A stretch of DNA of 25,902 bases, taken from assembly GCA_023132545.1 (NCBI GenBank), contig JAGLYB010000032.1, positions 1 to 25,902 of the forward strand. The letters are read 5' to 3'. Position 1 is the stretch's first letter; the number at the start of each line of letters is the position of its first letter. Shown piece by piece: positions 1 to 15,343 of the stretch. Source of the DNA: Candidatus Bipolaricaulota bacterium. Its GTDB lineage: Bacteria; Bipolaricaulota; Bipolaricaulia; UBA7950; UBA9294. The notes beneath the pieces were generated by a model, which had not been told where the DNA came from, did no database searches, and saw nothing but the letters and a program-made list of their open reading frames with translations. The translations under genes were made by a program, and so were the position numbers.

Positions 1-443
1 ACTGCCAAAGGCTCGATCAGTGCACCGGTTTCAAAGTCCATGCCATCAGGAAGTGGGAACAAATAGCGGGCGGGGACAATGATGAATTCCGCAAGGCATC
101 CATCCATTGTGACCCCCAGCCCTCTGCTGTTCGGACAGATGTTGTCGCGTTCCTCGTTGCAGCGGGAACAAACGCCGCATCCGAAATTCGGGCGCACGGT
201 TACGCGGGTTCCGACTGACCAGTCCTTAACATCGGAACCGATCGCATCGATCACTCCCGCACACTCATGTCCGAGAACAAACGGATACCCGTTGTTTCTC
301 CGCCCAGAGTAGAACTCCATGTCCGTCCCACAGATACCGACAACGTACACGGCAATCCGAACCTCACCCGGCCCAGGTTCGGGCAGCAGGCGGTTGGTCA
401 GGGTCAATCTCTCCGGAGCAACAAGTTGCGCGACTCTCATCAT
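1..443 (-). CDS. Zn-dependent medium-chain dehydrogenase (threonine/sorbitol dehydrogenase-like MDR), 5' part only; runs off the left edge
   Basis: Not in the ORF track; translated by hand from ATG at 443 (or 440): MMRVAQLVAPERL...VGICGTDMEFY...VLGHECAG...NFGCGVCSRCNEERDNICP...GALIEPLAV. Shows the catalytic-Zn motifs GICGTD and GHE, the structural-Zn motif CxxCxxC-x7-C, and the EP motif. Starts 3 nt after the upstream stop. Confidence 0.93.
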   Translation of the reverse strand, partial: MMRVAQLVAPERLTLTNRLLPEPGPGEVRIAVYVVGICGTDMEFYSGRRNNGYPFVLGHECAGVIDAIGSDVKDWSVGTRVTVRPNFGCGVCSRCNEERDNICPNSRGLGVTMDGCLAEFIIVPARYLFPLPDGMDFETGALIEPLA

Positions 444-1791: not shown

Positions 1792-3522
1792 CTAGAACTT
1801 CTTTCGATTGGGTTCGATTTCCCATATGGACTGCATAGCATCTGCACTGATGTCGTACACCACGTTGTGCGGTGGTAGAGGCTCGACGCGCATGAACTCC
1901 GGCACATCGGCCAGCCGGTCTGAGACTCCGGCGGCTACGTTGAACGCGCGCTCTGTCTCCAACGTTGCGGCTGCTTCGTTCGCGATATCGGCAAATGAGA
2001 CGTTCGTGCCGAAACAGCTGTTCACCAACTCTGCAAGTAACTCTGCGTCTTCGACAAGCGGTCCACGCGCAAACAGGCAGAGTCCCGACATATCCAGGAT
2101 CATGGAGCGAATTTGTAGGGCTCTCGAGTTCTCGAGTTGCCCTTCAGCGGAAAGTGGATCGAGTGATCGGGCCGTACCGAATGCATTCCCGGCGGTATGA
2201 TCCGCACCCATCGGAGACGTCGCATACGTAACACCGTTTCCTTTGAGTGCCCGAGGATCGTACCCAGGAATTCCTTGCCCCTTGACTGTCGGCACACGGC
2301 GAACGCCGAGAGCCTGACCGGTAAACGCCGCTCCCTGACCAAGAATTCGTCCCAGGGGTGTCGCTTGTTCGATCTGTCGAAGAAGATCCGCGGCTGCCTC
2401 AACGTCGCCAAACTGGGCTAATCCGGCTTCCATAGCCACGCCAAGTGCACAGCCCATTTCGATTGCATCCAACCCTATGTCGTTGCACAGAGCATTGAGT
2501 TCGGCAATCCCATCCAGCGTGCCAATCCCGCAGTTCGACCCCAGAAGTGCGATGTTCTCGTACTGCAGCGAGGCTACCTTGCGGTGCCCGCCTTCGTCGG
2601 GGAAGACGTTGGAACAGCGGATCACACACCCAGCCATGCACGGCGTTCCAGATCGTCCGTCTCCGCCGCGGGCTGCAATGGTGTCCGCCAAGCACTTGCC
2701 AGTGATTCCATCGATCCCGTCAAACGATCCACTGCTGAAGTTGAGGGTAGGCAGTAGACCCAACTCATTGGATGTCGCAACGATTCCCGCAGTTCCGAAC
2801 TTCCGCCGCCCTTCGATTTTCGGGCTGGCCAGGATTAGTTCGGTGAAGCGGCGGGATGCCTTCTTAAGACAATCGGCATCCGCGCCGGCCTGCGGCGGCG
2901 CTCCCTCATCGTCGATCACGATTGCTTTGATCCCCTTTGATCCCATCACGGCACCGAGACCTCCACGTCCCGCATACCGGATCTGCACGCCAGTGACATC
3001 CGTTGTCGCAATGCCGGAGGCCGTCATGCGTAACTCCCCCGCCGGACCAATCACCAGAAAGCCACATCGCTCGCCGAACTGTTCGCGAAGTATCCCCAAC
3101 GTCTCGCGAACCGAAAGTCGATCCAACGTCAGATCGTCAACCCACGTTGCACCGTTTCGATCAATTCGAAGAACCCGCGAAGCCGGATCATCCGGTGCAT
3201 CTTCGATAATCAATGCTCGGACCCCGGCACGAGCCAGCGTCTGCCCGGCCTCTCCCCCAACGTTCGATTCCTTGATGCCACCGGTGAGCGGACTCTTCCC
3301 CCCAATAGACAGTCGACCACTCGTCGGAATCATTGTTCCACCAAGCCATCCTGGTGCAAAGATTAACTTGTTTCCACGTCCAAGCGGCTCGCACGTAGGA
3401 TCCACTTCGCGGGCCAAGATATTGGCGATTAACTGACGACCTCCCCACAGCGACATCTCGTCTGAAACGGGCGTCTGTTCAATTGCGCACGTTCGCGCGT
3501 TGACTCTCACAACTCGTTGCAT
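1792..3522 (-). CDS. aor: Aldehyde:ferredoxin oxidoreductase family (W/Mo-bispterin, 4Fe-4S)
   Basis: N-domain GKSPLTGGIKESNVGG and AGRGGLGAVMGSKGIKAI; Fe-S ligands CMAGCVIRC plus GLCLF; QYE and DIGLDAI pterin-proximal motifs; GADH; SD GAGGAG. Confidence 0.93.
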   Translation of the reverse strand: MQRVVRVNARTCAIEQTPVSDEMSLWGGRQLIANILAREVDPTCEPLGRGNKLIFAPGWLGGTMIPTSGRLSIGGKSPLTGGIKESNVGGEAGQTLARAGVRALIIEDAPDDPASRVLRIDRNGATWVDDLTLDRLSVRETLGILREQFGERCGFLVIGPAGELRMTASGIATTDVTGVQIRYAGRGGLGAVMGSKGIKAIVIDDEGAPPQAGADADCLKKASRRFTELILASPKIEGRRKFGTAGIVATSNELGLLPTLNFSSGSFDGIDGITGKCLADTIAARGGDGRSGTPCMAGCVIRCSNVFPDEGGHRKVASLQYENIALLGSNCGIGTLDGIAELNALCNDIGLDAIEMGCALGVAMEAGLAQFGDVEAAADLLRQIEQATPLGRILGQGAAFTGQALGVRRVPTVKGQGIPGYDPRALKGNGVTYATSPMGADHTAGNAFGTARSLDPLSAEGQLENSRALQIRSMILDMSGLCLFARGPLVEDAELLAELVNSCFGTNVSFADIANEAAATLETERAFNVAAGVSDRLADVPEFMRVEPLPPHNVVYDISADAMQSIWEIEPNRKKF

Positions 3523-3531
3523 CGATCCTCC

Positions 3532-5484
3532 TCAACCGTCCGTTCCGTCTTCTGTTCGCATCACTGCGCGCCATGCGGCACGCCAGCCTTCATACACCGC
3601 TTCCTGGATTCCCCGCGGGTCACGTGCATCACCCACAACAAACACGGGGAACGGGTCGTCCCTTAGCTCATTCGCTACTGTAAGATTCGATTCGGCTCCA
3701 ATGGCCACCACCACTCGGGTGGCCGGAAGTTCACTCTGTCGGCCGTCCTTCTCGATGAGTACAGTGTCGGATCGGATTTCGATTACACGAACATCGGTAC
3801 GAATTTCGACGTGTCCCTCTTCCAGATGCCGCAAGAGCGCCGCGAGAGAGATTGGCTCGCAGTCCCGTCCCACGTCATTTAGCAATTCGAGAACAGTGAC
3901 CTTGCCACCTCGTTCTGCACAGTAGGATGCGGTCTCGCAGCCGACCAATCCTCCACCAATCACCACGACCGTTTCTCCGGAGACTGAGTCGCAAGAGGCC
4001 AAAGCACGCTCAACCGTCCACACGTGTTTCTGTGAGATGCCGGCTACGGAGAGATGTTTTTGAATTCCTCCGATTGCCAGAATGACTGCATCCGGATGCA
4101 GTTCGCGGATGGTCTCCACCCTGACGTCGATTCCTGTTTTGATCTCTACACTTGCCGGAAGTGACTGGATCATGTCGTCAAGCAACCAGTCGATCTTTTC
4201 CTTGTGCGGCGGAACCTTGGCGTAGCGAAGCTGTCCCCCAAGTTCGGCTTCGCGTTCGAGCAAGACAACCTGCGCTCCAGCGATGGCCGCTGTTGCCGCG
4301 GCCTGCAATCCGCCTGGCCCAGCGCCAACCACAATGACTCGTCTCTCACTGCAGGGTTCGGGGTGTGCTTCCCCCTCGAATCCGACCTCGGGATTGACCG
4401 AACAGCAGATCGGCAGATCGTCAAAAACGCGTCGTTGAACACATCGATTACACGAAATGCAACGGTGGATTGTTGGAGCTTTGTCTGCGGCCGCCTTATT
4501 TGGCCATTGCGGATCAGCAATAAGGCCGCGCCCGATGGCCACGAAGTCCGCTGCCTCTTCAGCCAGCGTATGCTCCACGGTCTCAGGGTTCCGAAAAACA
4601 CCGACTGTAACAACCGGAATGTCCACTGCAGCCTTGATCGTCGCCGCAAGATACGCTCGCCAAGCCTCGGGATAGACCATCGGCTCAAGCTGTTTCTCAG
4701 GATTCGCCGCTGTAGCAGCCGAGATATGCAACGCGTCGATACCGGAGTCAACCAGGGCATGGCACAGCTCAACCGATTCGTCAAGAGCCCTGCCTTCAGG
4801 AAGAAACTCGTCCCCACTTAAACGGAATAACAGTGGATAGTCGCAGCCCACAGTTTGCCTCACTCTTCGTACTACATCGAGGGCAAACCGCCAGCGTTTC
4901 TCCTGAGTCCCTCCGAACGCATCGGTCCGCTGATTTGTAATCGGAGACAGGAACTGTGCAATCAGATATCCGTGTGCCCCATGGATTTCGACGGCATCGA
5001 ATCCAGCTCGCTTGGCCCGCACGGCGGCTCGCGCATAGCAGTCGATGAGACCCTCGATCTCGAATACCTCAAGCGGCACAGGGGGTAGAGCGTTCGCAGT
5101 CCATCCCACATCCGACGGTGCAACTGCGGGCACGCCGGTCCTCTGCGGTTTTGCTACAGCCCCAGCGTGGTTAATCTGAATTGCTACCGCGGCACCGCGC
5201 TCCCGCACAGCCCGCGTCAGCTCGAACAGTCCAGGCACATACCGGTCATGATTGATCCGTAATTGGACGGCTCCGTTGCCTCCTACCGGTTCATCAATTG
5301 ACGCGTTCTCGATGATGATCAATCCAGCCCCGCCTTGGGCACGCGCTGCGTAGTAAGCGATCATTTGAGGCGTAGGTTCACCATGAGCTGACGCGAAGTT
5401 GGTTGCCATCGCCGGCATGACAATGCGGTTTCGTACTTGCAGAGATCCGATGTTGCCCTGCCGGAACATCCGCTTGTCTGACAT
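3532..5484 (-). CDS. NADH:flavin oxidoreductase, OYE TIM barrel plus 4Fe-4S plus FAD/NAD domain (2,4-dienoyl-CoA reductase/BaiCD/enoate reductase architecture)
   Basis: NRIVMPAM, QINHAG, EIHGAHGYLIAQFLSP, GRGLIADP, CISCNRC...CSVNP, VVGAGPGG and VIGGGLVGCE Rossmann motifs. Start at ATG 5484 preferred (5508 in track overlaps livF). Confidence 0.92.
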   Translation of the reverse strand: MSDKRMFRQGNIGSLQVRNRIVMPAMATNFASAHGEPTPQMIAYYAARAQGGAGLIIIENASIDEPVGGNGAVQLRINHDRYVPGLFELTRAVRERGAAVAIQINHAGAVAKPQRTGVPAVAPSDVGWTANALPPVPLEVFEIEGLIDCYARAAVRAKRAGFDAVEIHGAHGYLIAQFLSPITNQRTDAFGGTQEKRWRFALDVVRRVRQTVGCDYPLLFRLSGDEFLPEGRALDESVELCHALVDSGIDALHISAATAANPEKQLEPMVYPEAWRAYLAATIKAAVDIPVVTVGVFRNPETVEHTLAEEAADFVAIGRGLIADPQWPNKAAADKAPTIHRCISCNRCVQRRVFDDLPICCSVNPEVGFEGEAHPEPCSERRVIVVGAGPGGLQAAATAAIAGAQVVLLEREAELGGQLRYAKVPPHKEKIDWLLDDMIQSLPASVEIKTGIDVRVETIRELHPDAVILAIGGIQKHLSVAGISQKHVWTVERALASCDSVSGETVVVIGGGLVGCETASYCAERGGKVTVLELLNDVGRDCEPISLAALLRHLEEGHVEIRTDVRVIEIRSDTVLIEKDGRQSELPATRVVVAIGAESNLTVANELRDDPFPVFVVGDARDPRGIQEAVYEGWRAAWRAVMRTEDGTDG

Positions 5485-5497
5485 CGAGGAAGGCTCT

Positions 5498-6211
5498 CTA
5501 CCCACCAAGGTAGAGGCGCTTCACCTCCTCGTTGTTGCGAATCTCTTCAGCAGGCCCCTCGTACTTGTTGCAGCCCGTCTCTAACACATAGGCATAATCC
5601 GACATCTTGAGACTTCGATCGGCGTTCTGCTCGACAATCAACATCGTGCTGCCTGCACTGCGGATTTCCTCAATCTTGTCAAAGACCTCATTCGCCATGA
5701 TTGGCGAGAGCCCCAATGACGGTTCATCAAGGAACATCAGGCGTGGATTGAGCAGCATCGCGCGGCCCATCTCAAGCGTCTGCATCTCACCACCGCTCAA
5801 GCTTCCGCCCTTTTGCTTGCTGCGTTCGCGAAGGAGAGGGAACAGATCGTACACGCGTTCGAGATCCTTCTGGATCCCCTTGCGATCCTTGCGGATGTAC
5901 GCGCCAAGTTCAAGATTCTCTCGCACCGTCATCAGCGGGAACACATGTCGTCCCTGCGGAACAAATGTAATCCCGAGACGAAGCAGCTCTGCCGGCGAAG
6001 GATTGGTCACGTCTTGACCATCGAATGTGACCGTGCCCTCACGCGCAGGCAGCAGTCCGAACAACACGCGGAATATCGTTGACTTCCCCGCACCGTTGGG
6101 ACCGATGATTGAAACCATCGTTCCCTCTTTCACATCAAGCGAGACCCCATTCAGGATGTCGAGTTCCTTGGAGTACCCGGCCACAATGTTTCTTGCCTTC
6201 AGCAATGCCAC
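5498..6211 (-). CDS. livF: HAAT (branched-chain amino acid-type) ABC transporter ATP-binding protein, LivF family
   Basis: GPNGAGKST Walker A, LSGGEMQ signature, LDEPSLGL, VEQN. Start moved to GTG 6211 (MALLKARNI), 1 nt after the livG stop, with GGAGGG upstream. Confidence 0.95.
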   Translation of the reverse strand: MALLKARNIVAGYSKELDILNGVSLDVKEGTMVSIIGPNGAGKSTIFRVLFGLLPAREGTVTFDGQDVTNPSPAELLRLGITFVPQGRHVFPLMTVRENLELGAYIRKDRKGIQKDLERVYDLFPLLRERSKQKGGSLSGGEMQTLEMGRAMLLNPRLMFLDEPSLGLSPIMANEVFDKIEEIRSAGSTMLIVEQNADRSLKMSDYAYVLETGCNKYEGPAEEIRNNEEVKRLYLGG

Positions 6212-6212
6212 G

Positions 6213-6953
6213 TTACCCTCCAAAGTAGGCCGCCATGACCTGTTCGTTTTTTTGGATCTCGTCTGGGGATCCTTCCGCAATCTTCTTCCCGTAATCGAGG
6301 ACGACGATACGATGGCACAATCCCATCACCATCCGCATGTTGTGTTCGATCACCAGGAAGCTGCACCCACGATCATTCAGCTCGACCAGACGCTCGCAAA
6401 TCTCCCGACCGAGTGTCGCATTCACACCAGCCATCGGTTCGTCGAGCATGATCAGCTTTGGATCGGACATAAGAACCATGCCCAGATCGAGCAGCTTCTG
6501 CTGCCCATACGAGAGATTCTTCGCCACTTCATTCTTGAGGTGAATGATGTTCAGAAACTCCAGAAGCTCGATCGCCCGGCGTACGTCTTTTGATTCGTCG
6601 ATCTGGAACAACCGGCTGAGGATCGTCCCTTCGCTCTCCTGGATCGCCATAACCATGTTGTCGAGCACTGTCATGCCGGGGAATAGCTGGACAAGCTGAA
6701 ACGTTCGCCCTACCCCAAGACGGTAGATATTGTGCGGCTTCATACGCGTAATCCTCTTGCCCATGAAGAACACATCCCCGCCGGAAGGACGTTGGATTCC
6801 AGTCACACAATCGAACAGTGTCGTCTTGCCGGAACCATTCGGGCCGATCAACCCAAGGATCTCGCCTTCTTTGACCTCGAAATCAACACCGCCGACAGCT
6901 TCCAGCTGGTAGAAACTCTTCTTCAACCCTTTGATCTCTAAAATGTTATTCAT
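6213..6953 (-). CDS. livG: HAAT ABC transporter ATP-binding protein, LivG family
   Basis: GPNGSGKTT, RTFQ, LSYGQQK, LDEPMAGVN, IEHNM, C-terminal AAYFG. Confidence 0.95.
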   Translation of the reverse strand: MNNILEIKGLKKSFYQLEAVGGVDFEVKEGEILGLIGPNGSGKTTLFDCVTGIQRPSGGDVFFMGKRITRMKPHNIYRLGVGRTFQLVQLFPGMTVLDNMVMAIQESEGTILSRLFQIDESKDVRRAIELLEFLNIIHLKNEVAKNLSYGQQKLLDLGMVLMSDPKLIMLDEPMAGVNATLGREICERLVELNDRGCSFLVIEHNMRMVMGLCHRIVVLDYGKKIAEGSPDEIQKNEQVMAAYFGG

Positions 6954-6963
6954 CCCATCATCC

Positions 6964-7950
6964 TCACTTTGTCAGTTGCGGGGGATTCCGTTTCAGAACC
7001 CGCCGGAAGAAGACATCTGACAGCCCCGCCAATCCCGTCGGCCAGAAGATCAGAATCACCAGCGTGATTGCGGAGAAGACGACGAAGTACAACTGCTGCG
7101 CTCCACGAAGGAATTGCGGCAGAAGCATTACAACGATCGCTCCGATAAATGCACCTTCGAACCGCCCAGAGCCGCCAATGATCAGCATGATCAAGAACCA
7201 AAATGACTCATGAACGGGGAATGCTGTCGGATCAATGAATTTCATCAGCGGTGCAAGAAGGCCTCCGGCAACGCCGGCATAGGCGGCTCCAATGGCAAAC
7301 GCCAGCAGTTTGTACGCCAGCAAGCTTACACCGACCATCTCCGCCCTCATGTCATTTTCCCGAATCGCCTTGAATGCTCGTCCCCAGCGCGAGTTCAGAA
7401 TCCACAACATCATGATTGTCAGAACGACGAGGAACCCGGCCACCAGGAAGTAGAAGGCAATATTGGATGACAAGTTGATGCCGAAGAAGCTCGGTCGCGG
7501 GATTCCGGGAAGCCCGGAGAAGCCGCCTGTAATCTCGTGTTCATTGGATAAGAACAGGTAGATGACGGTTCCAAATCCAAGAGTCACCAATGCCAAGTAG
7601 TGATGCTTGACACGTAGCGCTGGAAGCCCGAGGATCAACCCAGCCACAAAGGCAATGGATGCACCCAACGGAAGCGCCAGCCAAAACGAGTACCCGTTCA
7701 GGGTCATCAAGGCAACGGTATAGGCTCCAAGCCCCATGAACGCCGCATGCCCAAGCGAGATCTGTCCCGTGTAGCCGATTGTCAGGTTGAGCCCCATGAT
7801 GGTGATGATGTAGACCCCGATGAGGGTCGCAACGTACATATAGTATGAGTTCCCTCCGAAGATTATGGGGATCAGGCCGATGACGCCAAGGAAGATACCC
7901 CAATGCAGCAGCCGCCAGACGATCGGTTTGTTATTCGATCGATTTGCCAT
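6964..7950 (-). CDS. livM: HAAT ABC transporter permease, LivM family
   Basis: GLNLTIGYTGQISLGHAAFMGLGAY, YLALVTLGFG, SRWGRAFKAIRENDMRAEMVGV, GGSG...GAFIGA; multiple TM helices. Confidence 0.95.
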   Translation of the reverse strand: MANRSNNKPIVWRLLHWGIFLGVIGLIPIIFGGNSYYMYVATLIGVYIITIMGLNLTIGYTGQISLGHAAFMGLGAYTVALMTLNGYSFWLALPLGASIAFVAGLILGLPALRVKHHYLALVTLGFGTVIYLFLSNEHEITGGFSGLPGIPRPSFFGINLSSNIAFYFLVAGFLVVLTIMMLWILNSRWGRAFKAIRENDMRAEMVGVSLLAYKLLAFAIGAAYAGVAGGLLAPLMKFIDPTAFPVHESFWFLIMLIIGGSGRFEGAFIGAIVVMLLPQFLRGAQQLYFVVFSAITLVILIFWPTGLAGLSDVFFRRVLKRNPPQLTK

Positions 7951-7952
7951 GG

Positions 7953-8813
7953 TTATCGCTCCTCCGTTCCAAGTAGCCCCTCTTTGCGGATCAGGATCAC
8001 TGCAATGAGGACAACCAAGACCACCAGTTCGCGGTACTCTGTAGAGATGTAAGCAGAGGTAAAGGTCTCAATAACGCCAACAAGGAAACCACCAAGAAGC
8101 GCACCCCGGATCTGGTTGAATCCGCCAATTGTCGCGGAATAGAACGCCTTCAAGCCCAGTTGTGCCCCCATGTCGAACCGCACCATGTACACGGGAGCGA
8201 TGAGCATCGCCGCAAATACCACGATCACGGCATTCATCACAAATACCATCGTGGTTACCGAAGAGATATTGATGCCCAGGATCTTGGCTGCTTCACGATT
8301 CTGCGCCACAGCCTGCATCGCCTTTCCCGGCTTCGTCCGTTGGATAAACAGGTTGATTGCCAAGATGAGCGCGATGGCAATGACGATCGTCCAAACATGC
8401 TGACGCGAGAGAATAATCGAGCCAAATCGGTACGGCGTCATGCCAAAGATCTGTGGAAATGGCTTACACTGCGCGGACCAGAAGGTTGAGATGGAATTGG
8501 ACGCAAGAAAGCTGAGGGCGATTGTCGCAACGATGATTGTGGTGTGGGAACGGTCGATCAGCGGCTGAATGATCCCCCGCTTGACGACGTATCCCAGCAA
8601 CACAGCCGAGATACCGACTGTTACCAACAGCGCTAAGATGAATGGAACGCCAAGGCACACGAGAATAAACATCAGCACTGCGGATACCGTGAGGAAATCT
8701 CCCTGCGCAAAGTTCACGGTTCGCGAGGCCTGCCACAATAGCGTAAACCCGATCGCCACCAGTGCGTAGATCGCTCCAATGGAGATTCCGGAAACAACTA
8801 ATTGGATGAACAT
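7953..8813 (-). CDS. livH: HAAT ABC transporter permease, LivH family
   Basis: GISIGAIYALVAIGFTL, VNFAQG, GKAMQAVAQNREAAKILGI, IGGFNQIRGALLGG. Start ATG 8813 (GTG 8819 also possible); overlaps the aroD 3' end. Confidence 0.95.
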   Translation of the reverse strand: MFIQLVVSGISIGAIYALVAIGFTLLWQASRTVNFAQGDFLTVSAVLMFILVCLGVPFILALLVTVGISAVLLGYVVKRGIIQPLIDRSHTTIIVATIALSFLASNSISTFWSAQCKPFPQIFGMTPYRFGSIILSRQHVWTIVIAIALILAINLFIQRTKPGKAMQAVAQNREAAKILGINISSVTTMVFVMNAVIVVFAAMLIAPVYMVRFDMGAQLGLKAFYSATIGGFNQIRGALLGGFLVGVIETFTSAYISTEYRELVVLVVLIAVILIRKEGLLGTEER

Positions 8814-9544
8814 GTCCACCTCTGTTCCGATATCAAGTCAATCAAATTTCGCGTCTCCTGAATCGTCAATTGGCCAGGAACTGTGCCTGGCTCCACGGCG
8901 CAGTACGTGAACGATGCGCCGAGAATGCATGCCATAGGTCTCGACGGTGCTCCGTGTGCTCCAAGGGCAATCGCCGCAAACGGCACATTGAGAAAGGATC
9001 GCGCGTCAAGCGCAACATTGAGTACAGTCAGAAGGTCTCTATACGACAGCGCGCGGACCGCCAGCTTGATGAGATCAGGTTCAAGAGCGGCCACATCATG
9101 CAATCCTTGCGTGAGATCACCATGACTCGGCGTCTCCTTCATGTTCTCATACCCGATGAGCGCCGGCACGTTGTGCTCCCGTGCTGATCTAAGCAGTTGG
9201 GAACGAAGCTCAGGCTCGGTGAAGAACTCGATGTCCACTGCGGTCGCCCCGGCATGTACTGCTGCCTGTAACCGTTCGATCCGCTCCTCCTCGGTGCCAG
9301 GGAAGAACCCGCCGAATTGCGGTGTTCGGCATGCCACGATGTGCGGAACACCGGCGCGCTGAACCAGCTCCTCTACGGCCTTTGAATCCGCTAGACGGTC
9401 GATGCGAAGCTCAACGATGTCAGCGCCAGCCGACCGAGCACGTTGCACACCCTCAAGCATGCGGTCTACGTTGTCCGCCAACGATGTTGCAACCAAGAGC
9501 GGCGTTGCTCCAACCGTTACCTCCCCGATGGCCACCGTCCTCAT
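8798..9544 (-). CDS. aroD: Type I 3-dehydroquinate dehydratase homologue with His143->Glu substitution
   Basis: DIVELRID, CRTPQFGG, VDIE, DLIKLAV (Schiff-base Lys160), LGAHGAPSR, PGQL. The usual (S/G)YH(N/D) reads GYEN. The symbol denotes the family; canonical activity is doubtful. Confidence 0.88.
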   Translation of the reverse strand: MRTVAIGEVTVGATPLLVATSLADNVDRMLEGVQRARSAGADIVELRIDRLADSKAVEELVQRAGVPHIVACRTPQFGGFFPGTEEERIERLQAAVHAGATAVDIEFFTEPELRSQLLRSAREHNVPALIGYENMKETPSHGDLTQGLHDVAALEPDLIKLAVRALSYRDLLTVLNVALDARSFLNVPFAAIALGAHGAPSRPMACILGASFTYCAVEPGTVPGQLTIQETRNLIDLISEQRWTCSSN

Positions 9545-9966
9545 TATTCGGACGCCTCCTTGGCCAACGACTGTTCATACTTCTCATTGCTGACGATGGA
9601 AACTTCGATGCCCGACCCTTTGATAATCTTCACTGTATGTTTCAAGCGCGGCGGGATGAAGACAGTTGCCGGGCTTTCCACGGTGTACACCTCATCCCCA
9701 AGCGTAACCTCGAACGTAATTCCCGGTTGAGGGAAGACGTAGGCCTGAGACACCTCGTGTGCATGAATCTCTACGTAGTCCGGTCCCGGAGGGTTCTTCA
9801 CATCAATGTGATGAACGAAGATGTTCAGATCCGATCCGGCGACCATGTCGGTGTTGAGAAACGCCATCAGCGGGCCCAGCGTGTCCATGGTTTTGCGGTC
9901 GTGATGAATCAGCGGGCGCTCGGCCCAGTCGAACGGCTTAACGATGTATTTCGAGTACGTGCCCAT
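9544..9966 (-). CDS. Cupin-fold protein, paralogue B (HxH-x3-Q...H)
   Basis: Start moved to ATG 9966 (MGTYSKY; GAAAGGGG upstream). IHAHEVSQAYVF and TVFIPPRLKHTV; stop overlaps the aroD start. Confidence 0.85.
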   Translation of the reverse strand: MGTYSKYIVKPFDWAERPLIHHDRKTMDTLGPLMAFLNTDMVAGSDLNIFVHHIDVKNPPGPDYVEIHAHEVSQAYVFPQPGITFEVTLGDEVYTVESPATVFIPPRLKHTVKIIKGSGIEVSIVSNEKYEQSLAKEASE

Positions 9967-10005
9967 TTTGCCCCTTTCAGTCATGGATTCCGGGTAGCCC
10001 GCGGA

Positions 10006-10401
10006 TCACCCGTAGTACCCCTTGCGGAGAATACAGACCTCGATGCCCTTGCCTTCTATGATCTTCAGGTTGTGTTTGATCCCCGGCGGGATGAAGACGG
10101 TTGCCGGGCTTTCGGCTTGATATGTCTCCTCTCCAAGAATGACCTCGAAACGCAGCCCTGCTTCAGGGAAGACATACGCCTGCGACACGTCGTGGGTGTG
10201 AACCTCAACGTAGTCCGGTCCCTTGTCCCCCTTGACCTCGATGTGATGCACGAAGATGTTGATGTCGGCACCATCAACCATTTCTCGATTGAGAAACGAA
10301 ACCAAAGGTCCCAGTTTCGACAGCCCGTTGGCGTTGTGGAATACCAAATCCCGGTCTTCCCAGTCAAACGGCTTGACGATCAGGTGTTCGTACTTACCCA
10401 T
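10006..10401 (-). CDS. Cupin-fold protein, paralogue A (HxH-x3-Q...H)
   Basis: VHTHDVSQAYVF and TVFIPPGIKHNL; start abuts the aroC stop; 79/131 positions identical to paralogue B without gaps (hand count). Confidence 0.87.
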   Translation of the reverse strand: MGKYEHLIVKPFDWEDRDLVFHNANGLSKLGPLVSFLNREMVDGADINIFVHHIEVKGDKGPDYVEVHTHDVSQAYVFPEAGLRFEVILGEETYQAESPATVFIPPGIKHNLKIIEGKGIEVCILRKGYYG

Positions 10402-11508
10402 CTATGTTTCCTTTCTGTGGCTCTGTGATTTTGCGAGCATTGCGTGATCGATCAGGGTCAAGGCAACCATGGCTTCGGCAATCGGAATCATCCGCGGGAC
10501 GATGGTCGGATCGGTCGCCGTCTTACAGCGGAAGGTCGCCGCTTCCATCCGAACCATGTCCACGGTTTCTTGCTCCGCCCCAATCGTAGGCGTTGGCTTC
10601 ACAGCCATTCGCAGAACAATGTCTTCTCCAGTTGAAATGCCGCCAAGAATCCCCCCGGCATGATTCGTTCGGAACCGTATCGTTCCAGACGATAGGTACG
10701 GCAGGTCGTTGTTCTCGCTGCCAACCATCTTTGCACAGCGGAACCCGGCCCCGATTTCCACGCCCTTGACACTGCCAATGCTCATCAGTGCACGCGCCAA
10801 GTTCGCATCCAATTTGTCAAAGACCGGCTCCCCCCATCCCACTGGGACGTTGTGTGCGATTACCTCGACGATGCCTCCCAGACTCTCTCCTTCGCGTTTC
10901 GCCTGGAGTGCCCGATCCAGCATCCGCTGTGCAGTCTCGGCATCCGGGCAGCGAACCGGTGGTACATCGGCGCCGGCGCGAATTTCTTCATACGACATGT
11001 CCGGTGCCTCGATGCCGGCGAGTGCTTTGGTGTAGGCGATGATCTCTACGTTCATCGAAGCAAGCAGCTTCTTGGCGATGCCTCCCGCAGCAACACGCAT
11101 CGCAGTTTCTCGGCCGTTGGCGCGTCCGTCAGCGACCCAATCACGGTAAGGGCCATGCTTGGCGAAATATGTGTAGGTCGCGTGCCCCGGCTTGATGACA
11201 GTCTTTTCGTCCATATAAGAGGCAATTCGTTCCGGTGTTGCCCATTCGTTGTCAATGATCAACCCAATGGGCGCGCCTGTCGTAAACCCATCTAGGGTTC
11301 CGGATAGAATGCGAACCCGATCCGATTCCACTCGTGGTGTAGCAATCTCGCTCTGCCCCGGCTTACGCCGATCCAGATCATGCTGGATGTCTGCCTCGAC
11401 CAAGGGAAGTCCTGCAGGGACACCATCGACAATGCCGACAAGCGCTGTGCCAAACGCCTCGCCCGACGTTGTTATGCGAAACGCCCGCCCAAACGTGTTC
11501 CCCAACAT
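10402..11508 (-). CDS. aroC: Chorismate synthase homologue with remodelled substrate site
   Basis: MLGNTFG..FRITT.GE, RRKPGQS, PGHA, RET, KLDANLARALMSIGSVKGVEIGAGF, TNHAGGILGGISTG, KPTPTI (flavin-binding motifs intact), but GEAFG, RANGRET and ATDP replace GESHG, RSSARET and RHDP. The symbol denotes the family. Confidence 0.9.
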   Translation of the reverse strand: MLGNTFGRAFRITTSGEAFGTALVGIVDGVPAGLPLVEADIQHDLDRRKPGQSEIATPRVESDRVRILSGTLDGFTTGAPIGLIIDNEWATPERIASYMDEKTVIKPGHATYTYFAKHGPYRDWVADGRANGRETAMRVAAGGIAKKLLASMNVEIIAYTKALAGIEAPDMSYEEIRAGADVPPVRCPDAETAQRMLDRALQAKREGESLGGIVEVIAHNVPVGWGEPVFDKLDANLARALMSIGSVKGVEIGAGFRCAKMVGSENNDLPYLSSGTIRFRTNHAGGILGGISTGEDIVLRMAVKPTPTIGAEQETVDMVRMEAATFRCKTATDPTIVPRMIPIAEAMVALTLIDHAMLAKSQSHRKET

Positions 11509-11517
11509 GGCAACCTC

Positions 11518-12804
11518 CTATTCTTCATGCACCGTCATTCGTGCACCAATTGCCTGCATCGACGACACGAATGTTGGATAGGTAATGCGCACTGATTCCG
11601 CGCTGTTGATCCGCGTTTCTCCCTCGGCAATCAATCCGGCAACAGCAAGAGCCATGATCACACGATGATCATCATGACCATTGACACTAGCGCCGTGAAG
11701 CACGCTTTTACGGATCATGAGACCGTCCGGCTTCTCTTCGATCTTCGCCCCCATCTTCGATAACTCAGCACACATGACGGCAATGCGATCGGTCTCTTTG
11801 ATTCGCGCCATAGCAACGTTCTCCAGCACGGTCTCTCCCTCGCAGCAACAGCCGACAACAGCCAGCATTGGAAGTGCATCCGGTGTGTTCGACAGATCCA
11901 TTCGGATCCCACGAAGAGATTCGCTGCGCTGAATGCGAAGCTCGCTACCACGAATATCAAGCGTTGCCCCCATCTGCCGTAGATACTCAAACACTTGTTT
12001 GTCTCCCTGGCTGTCGTTGAAATCGAGACCTTGAAGAAGGACGTCGGGGTCAGCCGCAAGTATGGCCGCACAACCTGGGAACGTTGCTGATGAGAAATCG
12101 GCAGCAATCGGTCGTTCAAACGGCGTGTACGATTGCGGGCCTATGATCTCAAACTGTGTCAGTGCGTCGTTGGATGTGACCTCGATACCACAGGCACGAA
12201 GCCAGTCCAGCGTCATTCGTACGTAGCCCTTCTCGTTCATCACACCGTCAACATTCAAGCGAATCGTTCCAGTAACCAGCGGCGCAGCTAGCAATAGCGG
12301 AGTGAGGTAAATCGACGTCGTACCGTTCACAGTAGCTTGCCCAGCATGCAATGGGCCGCGAATCGTGATCGGTGCCGTGCCGTCCAGTGATGCCGATTCA
12401 ACAGTTGCTCCCAGTTGCTGAAGAGACTGAAGCAGTGGCCCAAACGGACGTGTACGAATGCTCTCATCACCATCAAGCGTAATGGGGACATCACCCGTCG
12501 CACAGACGGCAATCAGATTGCCGAGCGTGGTGCCTGAATTGCCAACATGGATAGACAGGGAGGACGACGGGAGCCGTCCTCCAGTACCGTCGATGATCCA
12601 CCGATCGTTGCGTTGATCGATCGGTGCACCCAGTTGCCGACAGCAATCGACTGCCGACAGCGTATCTGCAGCATCCAATGGATGAAGGATCTGCGATTGC
12701 CCATCAGCGAGAAACCCCATGATAACGCCGCGAATGGTATGCGACTTCGAAGCCGGGATGCGGATTGACCCGCGAAGCGATGAGCGTTTGACTGCAAGGA
12801 ACAC
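11518..12804 (-). CDS. aroA: EPSP synthase (3-phosphoshikimate 1-carboxyvinyltransferase) homologue with active-site substitutions
   Basis: PASKSHTIR, GNSGTT, RTRP, ADFSSA, PDALP, RIKETDRI, DDHRV; GTG start with GGGGAGG SD. SSQ reads TSI. The symbol denotes the family. Confidence 0.92.
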   Translation of the reverse strand: MFLAVKRSSLRGSIRIPASKSHTIRGVIMGFLADGQSQILHPLDAADTLSAVDCCRQLGAPIDQRNDRWIIDGTGGRLPSSSLSIHVGNSGTTLGNLIAVCATGDVPITLDGDESIRTRPFGPLLQSLQQLGATVESASLDGTAPITIRGPLHAGQATVNGTTSIYLTPLLLAAPLVTGTIRLNVDGVMNEKGYVRMTLDWLRACGIEVTSNDALTQFEIIGPQSYTPFERPIAADFSSATFPGCAAILAADPDVLLQGLDFNDSQGDKQVFEYLRQMGATLDIRGSELRIQRSESLRGIRMDLSNTPDALPMLAVVGCCCEGETVLENVAMARIKETDRIAVMCAELSKMGAKIEEKPDGLMIRKSVLHGASVNGHDDHRVIMALAVAGLIAEGETRINSAESVRITYPTFVSSMQAIGARMTVHEE

Positions 12805-12840
12805 GTCGTGCCTCCCCTAGTTTTCTTTGCTCAAAAACCT

Positions 12841-12864
12841 AAGGGGACGTTTGGCATTCCCCTT
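12841..12864 (-). terminator. Hairpin downstream of the binding-protein gene, possible leaky terminator
   Basis: Minus strand AAGGGGA-ATGCCAAACG-TCCCCTT followed by AGGTTTTT. Confidence 0.45.
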
Positions 12865-12890
12865 TGAAGCGTCGTTGTACAGCATCTCAG

Positions 12891-12946
12891 AAGGCCCGCG
12901 GAGACCGGTGTTGTGAACGGTTGTTCCCCGCTTCTCCGCAGGCCTT
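12891..12946 (-). repeat. 14-bp inverted repeat (13/14 match) right after the binding-protein gene
   Basis: AAGGCCCGCGGAGA (12891-12904) and TCTCCGCAGGCCTT (12933-12946); typical position for an mRNA-stabilising stem-loop. Confidence 0.7.
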
Positions 12947-12963
12947 ATAGTCAGGCTATGATT

Positions 12964-14100
12964 CTAGCCGTCTTGTGACGAGATGATCTTGATGATGACC
13001 TGTTCGCCGTTCTCGATCTTCACGAGGAAGAGATTGCGGTCAACAGTTCCATCTTCTCGATACGAGGTGTTGAGGAACACGTTTGGCTCCATCTCCGTCG
13101 TAATCGTGTTTTCGTGGAGCCACGTTCGCACAGCATCCGCATCAAACGCACCGACTGCTTCGATCGCTGTCTTGAGCGTGTATACGGCAACGTATCCCTT
13201 CATCGCATCGTGCGACGGGATTTCGTCGTACAACAGCTGGAACATTGCGGCAAAATCAGCGATCGGCTCGTACTTGTACGACCATGTCGCCGCGCCCATC
13301 ACGCCTTCCATTGCCTCGCCGCCCAATTCAACCGCAAGAGCACTGAGAAGCGGGCTGTATCCAACAACACTCAAATCGACGCCCAGCGTTTTCAGCTGGA
13401 TCATGAACCGCGCATTCTCCTCTTCGTGACCATAGAGGAAGATCGTGTCGGCTCCCATTCCCTGAATTCGAGCGATTTCACCGGCAAAGTCCGCCTGAGC
13501 TGTTTGGATTGCAATCCCTTCGAAGCCTAGACCGAATTCCTCGGCAGCCGCAGACAGAATGTCGCGACCGTCGCTGCCCATCTCATCATTGGTATAAACC
13601 ATGACAATCTGTTCAACACCGAGATCTTCACCCATCCAGCGGACCAGCCACGGGAATACATTCCGGTTAATCGGCGACGTCGCGAACACGTTATAGTTGC
13701 CTTGTTCGTAGATGCTCGTGGACGTCGAGCCGACCATCTGGATGATTCCCGCCTCTTCTACTGTCGCCATGTTGGCGATCGTCGAGGAGCTGTAGATCGT
13801 TCCGAGAATGGCAAATGGTTCCTTGGTGATCGCGTACTGCATCGCGGCTATGGAGATTGCCGGTCGGCTTTCCGTGTCAACGAGGAAGTACTCGATCTGG
13901 CGACCCAATATGCCGCCAGCGTTGTTGATCTCGCTGAATGCTAGCAGGATTCCGTCGCGCCAGTGCGCGCCGTGACTTGCACCATGACCACTCAATTCAC
14001 AGACGATACCAAATTCGACCGGACCTTCATCTTGTGCCATTAGTGTGCCGCTGAAAACCATGACAAGTAGAACGGCAATTAAACCAAATTTTCGGAGCAT
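12964..14100 (-). CDS. HAAT ABC transporter periplasmic substrate-binding protein (LivK/Peripla_BP_6 family)
   Basis: Signal peptide MLRKFGLIAVLLVMVFSGTLMA-QD (no lipobox); GIVCELSG, EINNAGGILGRQIE...DTES, GTIYSSS, ND..G, ADF..EIARI; SD AAGGAGGT. Confidence 0.93.
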   Translation of the reverse strand: MLRKFGLIAVLLVMVFSGTLMAQDEGPVEFGIVCELSGHGASHGAHWRDGILLAFSEINNAGGILGRQIEYFLVDTESRPAISIAAMQYAITKEPFAILGTIYSSSTIANMATVEEAGIIQMVGSTSTSIYEQGNYNVFATSPINRNVFPWLVRWMGEDLGVEQIVMVYTNDEMGSDGRDILSAAAEEFGLGFEGIAIQTAQADFAGEIARIQGMGADTIFLYGHEEENARFMIQLKTLGVDLSVVGYSPLLSALAVELGGEAMEGVMGAATWSYKYEPIADFAAMFQLLYDEIPSHDAMKGYVAVYTLKTAIEAVGAFDADAVRTWLHENTITTEMEPNVFLNTSYREDGTVDRNLFLVKIENGEQVIIKIISSQDG

Positions 14101-14223
14101 CCTTGACCTCCTTGCTCACTCTTTACTCGATGTTCTGCCAGAAAGATCAGCGCGTTTGCTCGTTTACCTCCTTCACGATTTCAAAGTACAGAATGGGAGA
14201 TCGCCACACATAATGGAGCGGGG

Positions 14224-14266
14224 AAAGAAAAAACGAACCGCCACGCTTATGCGTTGACCGTTCGTT
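14224..14266 (-). terminator. Intrinsic terminator inside the operon leader (attenuator candidate)
   Basis: RNA AACGAAC-GGUCA-ACGC-AUAA-GCGU-GGCG-GUUCGUU-UUUUCUUU, between the predicted promoter and the first start codon. Confidence 0.65.
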
Positions 14267-14317
14267 ATCACCATCCGCCCCCAGATCCCTGGAGAGGCCG
14301 TGGCGCCATTTCATCCT

Positions 14318-14334
14318 TTTTGACATAGTCAAAA
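14318..14334. promoter_or_regulatory. Perfect palindrome TTTTGAC-ATA-GTCAAAA, candidate operator
   Basis: 7-3-7 inverted repeat about 22-38 nt downstream of the predicted transcription start. Confidence 0.55.
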
Positions 14335-14362
14335 CGTCATCTATATATTCCACAACAGACAC

Positions 14363-14391
14363 ACCATAGAGGAAAAAAACCGTGCTGTCAA
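14363..14391 (-). promoter_or_regulatory. Sigma70-type promoter of the transporter/aro-like operon
   Basis: TTGACA (14391-14386) - 17 nt - TATGGT (14368-14363); predicted TSS about 14356. Confidence 0.75.
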
Positions 14392-14680
14392 GTCAGATAA
14401 ACTACGGAATCTGATGATGCTGTGGATGAATTCACGTTTTTTGAGGCAAGAAGACAACCTTCAGAAAGCATGTAGCGCACTCAGGAAATTCCGAGGATTC
14501 TCCCCGTGCTACCAGGACCCTCAAAGCACATCGATCAGCGAATTGGCCTTCTCTCTTGAGGACAGACTTAATGGGATAGGCCACAATTTGTACCTTTAAT
14601 GATGCGGGCCGAGCGGTCTTCACGGCCAAAGAACCTAGGGAATCCAAGCCGACTTGGACATTCCTTAACGCATACGACCT

Positions 14681-15343
14681 CTACCCTCGCGGATGGTTTA
14701 TCGCGTGATCATAGACCACCATGTAGCTAGTGGCGGCAACCGGACCAAGAAAAAGCGTGCCGCTGAGGATGGTCACAAGTTCGATGACCCAACCAGGAAT
14801 GCTGGAATCATAGGTTGACATCCAAAGTAAGAAGAACAACACCATGTATGGAATGGCCAGCAAGAAGCCAATACCGAACAGGGTTCCGCGATAACCTCTG
14901 GTGATGCTGGCGCTTTCGCGCATGGCTTCGATGGGTCGTACGGTTCGCGGGCCTTCCTTGGGATCGAGGAAGCGAATCAGTACGAATGAGTACATCAGAG
15001 CGACAATGATGCCGGGGATGACCAAGGCAACAAATCCCAACATGGTCAGAAGATTGAAGAGTAGATAAGCCCCAATGATGGGACCCGCTTGGGACATCCC
15101 TTCAAAGAGCTCCTTGAAGACAACCGGCTCCCTGCGGACAACCTTCAAGGCAAGCAGATACTGACCTGCATGCAATGGGGCAAGAATCATCATCACCATG
15201 ATTTGAAGCCATATCATGGAATCGGGAACCAGTAGACGGATCACTTGCTGGCATGCAAGGATCACCAACCAGGCCCCCAGTAGCAGAGGGAGCCGCCTTG
15301 TGAATGCGTCGAATCCGTCTCGTAATGCCGTCCAAGAAGTCAT
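14681..15343 (-). CDS. Integral membrane protein of unknown function (DUF975-like, by eye)
   Basis: About five hydrophobic helices; ALVIPGIIVALMYSF and AMRESASITRGYR pattern. Start moved to ATG 15343 (GGAGGAGG SD). Confidence 0.75.
   Translation of the reverse strand: MTSWTALRDGFDAFTRRLPLLLGAWLVILACQQVIRLLVPDSMIWLQIMVMMILAPLHAGQYLLALKVVRREPVVFKELFEGMSQAGPIIGAYLLFNLLTMLGFVALVIPGIIVALMYSFVLIRFLDPKEGPRTVRPIEAMRESASITRGYRGTLFGIGFLLAIPYMVLFFLLWMSTYDSSIPGWVIELVTILSGTLFLGPVAATSYMVVYDHAINHPRG

Follow-up and report, generated by a model that had tools for sequence, protein, structure and literature searches.

A chorismate synthase homologue with a remodelled leaving-group site in an uptake and redox operon of Bipolaricaulota

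Chorismate synthase (AroC, EC 4.2.3.5) forms chorismate and phosphate from 5-enolpyruvylshikimate 3-phosphate (EPSP), and is treated as a family with one fold and one reaction. In metabolic reconstructions from genomes, its presence is taken to mark prototrophy for aromatic amino acids. The present analysis concerns an AroC-like gene of Bipolaricaulota. The gene is located at 10402-11508 on the minus strand of a 25,902-nucleotide stretch from a cold-seep metagenome (Candidatus Bipolaricaulota bacterium, assembly GCA_023132545.1, contig JAGLYB010000032.1, positions 1 to 25,902), and this whole stretch is referred to below as the window. The open reading frame and its translation give a protein of 368 residues.

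The active site of chorismate synthase is well described. In the Paracoccidioides brasiliensis enzyme, the numbering of which equals Neurospora numbering in the motifs considered here, R46, R103, and R362 bind the two carboxylates of EPSP, while R129 and R354 bind its 3-phosphate, R354 through a salt bridge (PMC11633415). His17, beside the phosphate, is the presumed proton donor to the leaving group, and His106 is at the flavin (PMC7144000). The Asp of the RHD motif primes the flavin N5 (PMC3509576). Two invariant serines are described in the title of Rauch et al. 2008 (reference 35 in PMC3509576) as a proton relay essential for activity. The title of Ely et al. 2008, cited in PMC7144000, points to a secondary NAD(P)H:FMN reductase activity in some chorismate synthases.

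The closest chemical analogue of the route proposed below is the Streptomyces conversion of shikimate to cyclohexanecarboxyl-coenzyme A (CoA), a series of dehydrations and reductions. As far as the title of Skyrud et al. (ACS Catal 2020, cited in PMC13304725) indicates, it runs through CoA thioesters and uses a synthetase for shikimoyl-CoA and a dehydratase that depends on FAD. The window operon differs from the pathway so described, as it has no CoA ligase, its candidate dehydration module is an AroA-like and AroC-like pair, and the enzymes of the individual steps appear unrelated. Searches of the available literature found no characterised AroC-fold enzyme with another activity, as an earlier sequence-based note on this DNA (the original prediction) had held. 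Publications on AroC paralogues, or on the anaerobic use of quinate or shikimate through a pathway with these genes, were not found either.

Compared with canonical AroC (e.g., Acinetobacter 4lj2 and S. pneumoniae 1qxo), the AroC-like protein has the same flavin mononucleotide (FMN) motifs, flavin-side His, Asp base, and carboxylate binders. In contrast, it replaces Ser16, His17, Ser127, Arg354, His355, and Asp108, has Lys for Arg103, and gains an Asp in the GGG loop. Its gene is part of an uptake and redox operon, and its carriers have no matches to the chorismate consumers searched. With moderate confidence, the protein is read here as a neofunctionalised chorismate synthase paralogue that would carry out a reduced-FMN elimination, together with an AroA-like enzyme, on an imported non-phosphorylated ring acid. 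The remodelled pocket, the conserved operon, and the carriers without shikimate pathway matches argue against a biosynthetic chorismate synthase. The original prediction held chorismate formation from EPSP to be unlikely for this protein and suggested that it may use reduced FMN with a different leaving group or in a different reaction; it gains support from the fixed changes, the carrier genomes, and the operon.

The AroC-like protein and its active site

Family membership: The AroC-like protein is a full-length match to PF01264 (388 bits, profile positions 1-327 of 327). Solved chorismate synthases align along the whole protein, and the best is 4lj2 (E=3e-88). Against the NCBIfam equivalog model TIGR00033 it scores 403.7 bits (cut-off 212.2), and against NF003793 it scores 404.5 bits (cut-off 321). 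Scores above both equivalog cut-offs are what a true chorismate synthase would give, one that turns EPSP into chorismate and phosphate in the salvage of imported quinate or shikimate, with the odd residues tolerated. The protein already bears the name chorismate synthase in source records. As its clade passes the curated cut-offs, annotation pipelines would give the clade this name and could then deduce part of a shikimate pathway for organisms that have none. This name is likely an over-annotation that can distort prototrophy calls.

Motifs: Four motifs depart from the canonical form, and structure alignments and a coordinate check bear out the places predicted for them. All are read on the minus strand; canonical residues are given in Neurospora numbering and replacements in the protein's own. 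GEAFG at 11449-11463 stands for GESHG and replaces Ser16 with Ala18 and His17 with Phe19. KPGHAT at 11176-11193 stands for RPGHAD, with Arg103 changed to Lys106 and Asp108 to Thr111. The loop A126-D127-GRANGRET at 11104-11133 has Ala126 and Asp127 (a new acid) for two glycines and Asn131 for Ser127, and retains its own Arg129 and Arg133. Its GRANGRET portion (11104-11127) stands where canonical enzymes have GRSSARET; of this predicted departure, the loss of the second Ser (Neurospora Ser127, own N131) is real, but the neighbouring residues are A/S and A/G in canonical enzymes as well. ATDP at 10507-10518 stands for RHDP, with Arg354 changed to Ala331 and His355 to Thr332, and keeps Asp333 (codon 10510-10512). 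The flavin-side His109 (codon 11182-11184) and the downstream Arg339 (10492-10494) are retained. The alignment agrees with the prediction that the equivalents of His106 (His109) and Asp367 (Asp333) and the glycine-rich FMN motifs are intact.

Residue roles: Among the EPSP carboxylate binders, Arg48 and Arg339 are retained and R103 is conservatively replaced by Lys106. The two 3-phosphate arginines fare differently: the R129 equivalent (Arg133) is retained, whereas the R354 equivalent is lost. The leaving-group relay of Ser16, His17, and Ser127 is replaced throughout, the equivalents of His355 and Asp108 are both Thr, and the GGG loop gains its acid. Judged from the sequence, the flavin half of the site is intact, and the leaving-group half is less cationic and less polar. 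The retention of His109, Asp333, the carboxylate arginines, and Arg133 is compatible with a true synthase, whereas the replacement of both relay serines and the loss of the phosphate-binding Arg354 are not expected of one. The double serine mutant of the proton-relay work reportedly has no detectable activity.

Conservation: The alignment sets comprise 136 canonical representatives (one per 50%-identity cluster), 43 query relatives (71-92% identity), and sequences from two neighbouring clades. Conservation of at least 85% is found at 72 positions of the canonical set. The query clade keeps 60 of them, including all three glycine-rich motifs, and changes 12, namely S18A, H19F, G24V, R106K, D111T, Y118F/H, G126A, G127D, S131N, G330T, R331A, and H332T. 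These 12 are confined to the four motifs around the leaving-group site. The replacement residues are mostly at least 95% fixed in the 43 relatives, with positions 24 (58%) and 118 (67%) variable. All 136 canonical representatives have Ser at the Ser16 site and all have His at the His17 site, and at least 134 have Ser, His, and Ser at the Ser16, His17, and Ser127 sites. The query clade has Ala18 in 42 sequences, Phe19 in 40 of 42 and Tyr in the other two, and Asn131, so an aromatic ring is conserved at its own position 19. His109 is present in 43 of 43 query-clade sequences and Asp333 in 42 of 42. The Arg354 equivalent is Ala331 in all 42 that cover the site, and the adjacent His is now Thr. 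Pairwise ratios of nonsynonymous to synonymous substitution (dN/dS) within the clade are 0.06-0.18, with dS partly saturated. On the sequence evidence, one part of the active site has been remodelled under selection and has not drifted or decayed, because the changed residues are concentrated in four motifs, fixed, and under purifying selection.

Another explanation is a catalytically dead pseudoenzyme that would serve the neighbouring enzymes by scaffolding, by carrying or reducing flavin, or by regulation. The residues needed by the canonical mechanism are lost, and the secondary reductase activity named in the title of Ely et al. 2008 would suit such a role. Against this, the substrate-side arginines, His109, and Asp333 are invariant, the replacement residues are fixed rather than drifting, dN/dS is low, and two clades alike keep an AroA-like gene as partner. 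A dead enzyme is therefore considered highly improbable.

Relatives and carrier genomes

Family tree: A FastTree phylogeny of 77 AroC-family sequences joins the query clade (AF; support 100) with two others, AY (99) and SY (88), in one group with support 99. The first motif reads Ser-His in 135 of the 150 nearest 50%-identity representatives, and Ala-Phe or Ala-Tyr in none of them. The replacement of Ser16 by Ala and of Ser127 by Asn and the loss of Arg103 are common to AF and AY only, and AF alone has also lost Arg354 and His355.

AY clade: The AY proteins are 58% identical to the query, come from metagenome contigs, and have the motifs GEAY, IPGHAD, GRANGRE, and ARHDP. They resemble the query in the Ser16, Ser127, and Arg103 changes and in their association with an AroA-like gene, a HAAT importer, and an aldehyde:ferredoxin oxidoreductase (AFOR). 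In contrast, Arg354 and His355 are retained. A scan of the species genomes for the GEAY clade gave a best match of 43% identity, which is canonical. A 48%-identity Bipolaricaulota match in genome G047 was likewise rejected as a variant, as it is of the canonical type (GSSHG, RHDP) and is located beside cell-wall genes.

SY clade: The SY clade comprises 71 sequences with Tyr for His17, Arg for His355, and Glu for Asp108, and with the motifs GESY(G), RPGHAE, GRASGRE, and TRRD. Found in metagenome genomes of Armatimonadota, Bacillota, and Latescibacteria, its members are the nearest query relatives outside the operon-linked clades (52-61% identity). They share with the query an aromatic residue for His17 and the same well-supported group, but they retain Ser16, Ser127, Arg103, and Arg354. 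One member, on a 3.78-Mb contig, adjoins the gene for 3-deoxy-D-arabinoheptulosonate 7-phosphate (DAHP) synthase and is near that for dehydroquinate (DHQ) synthase. Another belongs to an AroA-AroC pair amid ribosome, cell-wall, and vitamin genes. The two loci examined, L020:10001-11125 and L035:8001-9119, are from Armatimonadota- and Bacillota-type genomes. As their sequences and contexts suggest, the SY proteins are probably ordinary chorismate synthases, natural His17Tyr enzymes. An enzyme with Tyr at position 17 can probably still work normally because the two examined members appear to be in housekeeping contexts. To call the lost residues invariant is to overstate the case for His17 across the family, and likewise for two of the three SSA-motif positions. 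Together, the Ser16Ala/His17Phe/Ser127Asn/Arg354Ala variants and the apparently functional His17Tyr clade represent natural tests of the proposed proton relay. An apparently housekeeping sister clade with Tyr17 is also a point for the true-synthase explanation of the query.

Census: The window belongs to a metagenome-assembled genome of 0.97 Mb (57% complete), in which PF01264 has one match. Across 184 Bipolaricaulota species genomes, the variant is present in 7 (71-100% identity) and canonical AroC in about 65 (35-48% identity), while 111 have neither. The other 7 species of the window's genus lack the variant. No genome has both types, although this exclusion (0 of 7) is statistically weak, as 111 of 184 genomes have no AroC at all and the relatives are not independent. 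Aromatic amino-acid auxotrophy seems to be common in Bipolaricaulota because so many species genomes are without any AroC homologue.

Shikimate pathway: The seven variant carriers are all metagenome-assembled genomes, and six of them are 85-94% complete. Shikimate kinase (SKI) gave no match over the cut-off in any of the seven, in a search that did not extend to the archaeal-type GHMP kinases. Prephenate dehydratase (PDT), Chorismate_bind (TrpE/PabB/MenF), chorismate mutase (CM_2), and MqnA also gave no match over the cut-off in the seven. Two carriers, G000 and G011, have in addition no match to DHQ synthase or shikimate dehydrogenase, and their sole other PF00275 match looks like MurA. In comparison, SKI, PDT, DHQ synthase, and shikimate dehydrogenase are present in 3 of 3 canonical carriers, often on one contig; Chorismate_bind and CM_2 are each present in 2 of the 3 and MqnA in none. 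The canonical Bipolaricaulota pathway is arranged as a single supraoperon (PDT, AroA, AroE, TrpE, AroC, AroK-AroB) with a class II AroA, as at G008:C3:12197-26061.

Since the shikimate kinase and chorismate consumer families are unmatched in 7 of 7 carriers, these organisms, as judged from their gene content, can neither make EPSP nor use chorismate by known routes. Loss of contigs could not plausibly hide the pathway in six independent genomes. For a true synthase this leaves no route to shikimate 3-phosphate (S3P) or EPSP and no PDT, chorismate mutase, chorismate-binding enzyme, or MqnA match downstream. That explanation is considered unlikely, even though a dehydroquinase-like and an AroA-like gene share the operon with the AroC-like gene.

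Gene neighbourhood and proposed reaction

Operon: The AroC-like gene is the third of 15 co-oriented genes on the minus strand, which are separated by gaps of -68 to +48 nt, except for 159 nt after the first gene. The first gene, identified by profile match, encodes a periplasmic binding protein (HAAT/Peripla_BP_6; 12964-14100). A Rfam scan of the operon leader (14050-14750) gave no family match at E<=1 and hence no riboswitch clue to a ligand. The second gene encodes the AroA-like partner (11518-12804; 428 aa; PF00275, 344 bits) and is located 9 nt upstream of the AroC-like gene. Two small cupin-like genes (9544-10401; 131 and 146 aa; weak Cupin_2 matches) follow, the first of which begins directly after the AroC-like stop codon (gap 0 nt). 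Next is a type I dehydroquinase-like gene (8798-9544; PF01487, 137 bits), whose protein scores 130.3 bits against TIGR01093 (NCBIfam aroD), just below the cut-off of 139.3. Two permeases and two ATPases of an ATP-binding cassette (ABC) importer are at 5498-8819, also by profile match.

The remaining genes are mainly of redox type. Profile matches identify a Fe-S flavoenzyme of the FadH/BaiCD/NCR type, with old yellow enzyme (OYE) and pyridine-nucleotide oxidoreductase domains, at 3532-5508. Its nearest solved structures are 2-naphthoyl-CoA reductase (6qkg, 3.9e-73) and 2,4-dienoyl-CoA reductase (1ps9), and its scores against the BaiCD and bilirubin-reductase models are below the cut-offs. An AFOR family protein (1792-3522), a third cupin (1378-1743), and the N-terminal part of a Zn-dependent dehydrogenase that runs off the window (3-443) are also profile matches. 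Between the last two is a distant U32-like protein of 309 aa (447-1376; weak Pfam match, E=6e-4). It groups with U32 peptidase-named clusters by language-model features (score 0.98), and a sequence search found no solved relative. Searches of solved structures and the Atlas gave no functional lead for the cupins or the U32-like protein.

The same order of 15 genes is found at two further loci, L018 and L034, the AroC-like proteins of which are 78% and 74% identical to the query. Both cupin-like genes are kept there, and the third cupin, U32-like, and Zn-dehydrogenase genes likewise close the operon. The AroA-like/AroC-like pair is also adjacent in G011, an AroA-like gene accompanies the AroC-like gene at every related locus, and the dehydroquinase-like gene is in the operon of every AF-clade locus seen.

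AroA-like partner: The AroA-like protein scores 379 bits against TIGR01356 (cut-off 287). It retains its phosphoenolpyruvate (PEP)-site residues, and among the PEP-site and S3P-site residues compared, K22, R124, D313, K340, E341, R344, and R386 (E. coli numbering) are unchanged. The change of Q171 to I is specific to its clade, and S197 to E and N336 to M, at two S3P-site positions, are also present. The positions S197, N336, and K411 are also altered in the AroA partner of the apparently housekeeping SY clade. The window's AroA-like protein shares 46% identity with the AroA partner of an SY-type enzyme, compared to about 32% with the class II AroA of canonical Bipolaricaulota, and because of this difference the pair seems, by sequence, to derive from a housekeeping AroA-AroC pair of another lineage. 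The AroA-like protein of the AY clade is 32% identical to that of the window.

AY operons: Locus L021 combines OYE-type flavoenzyme, Zn-dehydrogenase, AFOR, and binding-protein genes with ABC genes, a DinB-like gene between the AroC-like and AroA-like genes, and another Zn-dehydrogenase gene. Locus L033 carries AFOR and ABC genes, a double binding protein, the AroC-like/AroA-like pair, and, at L033:9517-11216, a URO-D-family methyltransferase with a B12-binding corrinoid protein. Such a methyltransferase and corrinoid pair is typical of anaerobic O-demethylase systems. By analogy, a connection of some AroA-like/AroC-like pairs with methoxylated aromatic or ring acids is hinted at. Neither a dehydroquinase nor a cupin was seen in the two AY-clade contigs examined, and the substrates of AF and AY operons may differ. 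Orthology of the AFOR and of the binding protein between AF and AY operons was rejected at 28% and 23% identity. A link through a DinB/MST-like gene, which stands beside the window operon and between the AroC-like and AroA-like genes in L021, was rejected as well (24% over 62 residues).

Proposed reaction: In the scheme that would account for these features, the binding protein and ABC transporter import a hydroaromatic carboxylic acid of the shikimate or quinate kind. The AroA-like enzyme would transfer the enolpyruvyl group from PEP to a hydroxyl of the ring acid, with no prior ATP-dependent 3-phosphorylation. The AroC-like enzyme would bind reduced FMN, His109 and Asp333 would act as in chorismate synthase, and Arg48, Lys106, Arg133, and Arg339 would hold the two carboxylates. 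A 1,4-elimination of the chorismate synthase type would follow, with a leaving group other than phosphate. This could be water, formed from a free hydroxyl at C3 to which the new Asp127 perhaps donates a proton, or else the enolpyruvyl group, departing as pyruvate. The net effect would be a PEP-driven dehydration to a cyclohexadiene or aromatic acid. The cupins, dehydroquinase-like protein, Fe-S flavoenzyme, AFOR, and Zn-dehydrogenase may then isomerise, dehydrate, and reduce the product, and the pathway may serve the anaerobe as a carbon source, an electron sink, or both. The ring-acid substrate and the leaving group named here are guesses.

The redox enzymes of the operon (Fe-S flavoenzyme, AFOR, and Zn-dehydrogenase) also suit a different role for the flavin. 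Reduced FMN could be a true reductant or support other chemistry on the AroA-like product, such as ene-reduction, reductive C-O cleavage, or isomerisation, with no redox-neutral 1,4-elimination. In favour of this, the leaving group's proton relay has been lost from a protein whose flavin machinery is intact. In contrast, the Asp base and the His of the elimination mechanism are strictly kept, no reductase domain or protein-specific partner is evident, and no precedent was found in the AroC fold. A net redox reaction is considered improbable.

Several points weigh against the neofunctionalised elimination enzyme favoured here. Hydroxide is a poor leaving group, and to our knowledge there is no precedent for enolpyruvate as a leaving group in the AroC fold. 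The Tyr17-bearing SY clade looks functional, and single motif changes do not prove a loss of activity. The kinase negatives leave GHMP kinases aside, and the pathway genes of relatives are clustered on one contig, so that one assembly gap could hide many of them. L021 shares its context with the window at the family level only, since identity to the window's proteins is 28% for its AFOR and 23% for its binding protein. The solved relatives of the window's binding protein are distant (about 1e-15) amino-acid binders and give no clue to the ligand.

If the function is new, flavin-assisted elimination chemistry would be retargetable to another leaving group, and an almost uncultured phylum would have a new anaerobic ring-acid route. 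A more specific claim is that the AroA-like/AroC-like pair is an unrecognised PEP-driven, reduced-flavin dehydration module for non-phosphorylated hydroaromatic acids, and the first AroC-fold activity other than chorismate synthase. This is put forward tentatively and is regarded as rather doubtful. If it were true, strict anaerobes of cold seeps and other sediments would use quinate- or shikimate-like acids, as a source of carbon or a sink for electrons, without ATP-dependent activation or CoA thioesters.

Transcripts of the operon

Two cold-seep metatranscriptome runs, X9 and X11, contain contigs that are 92-99% alike along the operon. These RNA contigs stem from near relatives, and the depths, taken from assembled contigs, are rough. 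The binding-protein gene has a read depth of 56-155 in X9 and 20-35 in X11. The AroA-like, AroC-like, and cupin genes have depths of about 2-5 in X9 and about 0.3-2.5 in X11. The RNA contigs span the operon leader at 14001-14500, and the stretch further upstream (14501-15000) has a depth of 1.9 in X9 and 0 in X11. In contrast, the source DNA run has a flat depth of 10-13. Because the RNA depth is uneven and the DNA depth is flat, the signal probably represents transcripts rather than carried-over DNA, and the operon is probably transcribed. The drop in RNA depth, to about 0-3 on the AroA-like gene, coincides with the 159-nt intergenic gap (12805-12963) between the binding-protein and AroA-like genes, which is the sole long gap in the operon. 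This fits an internal attenuator, a terminator or processing site, or differential stability of the mRNA.

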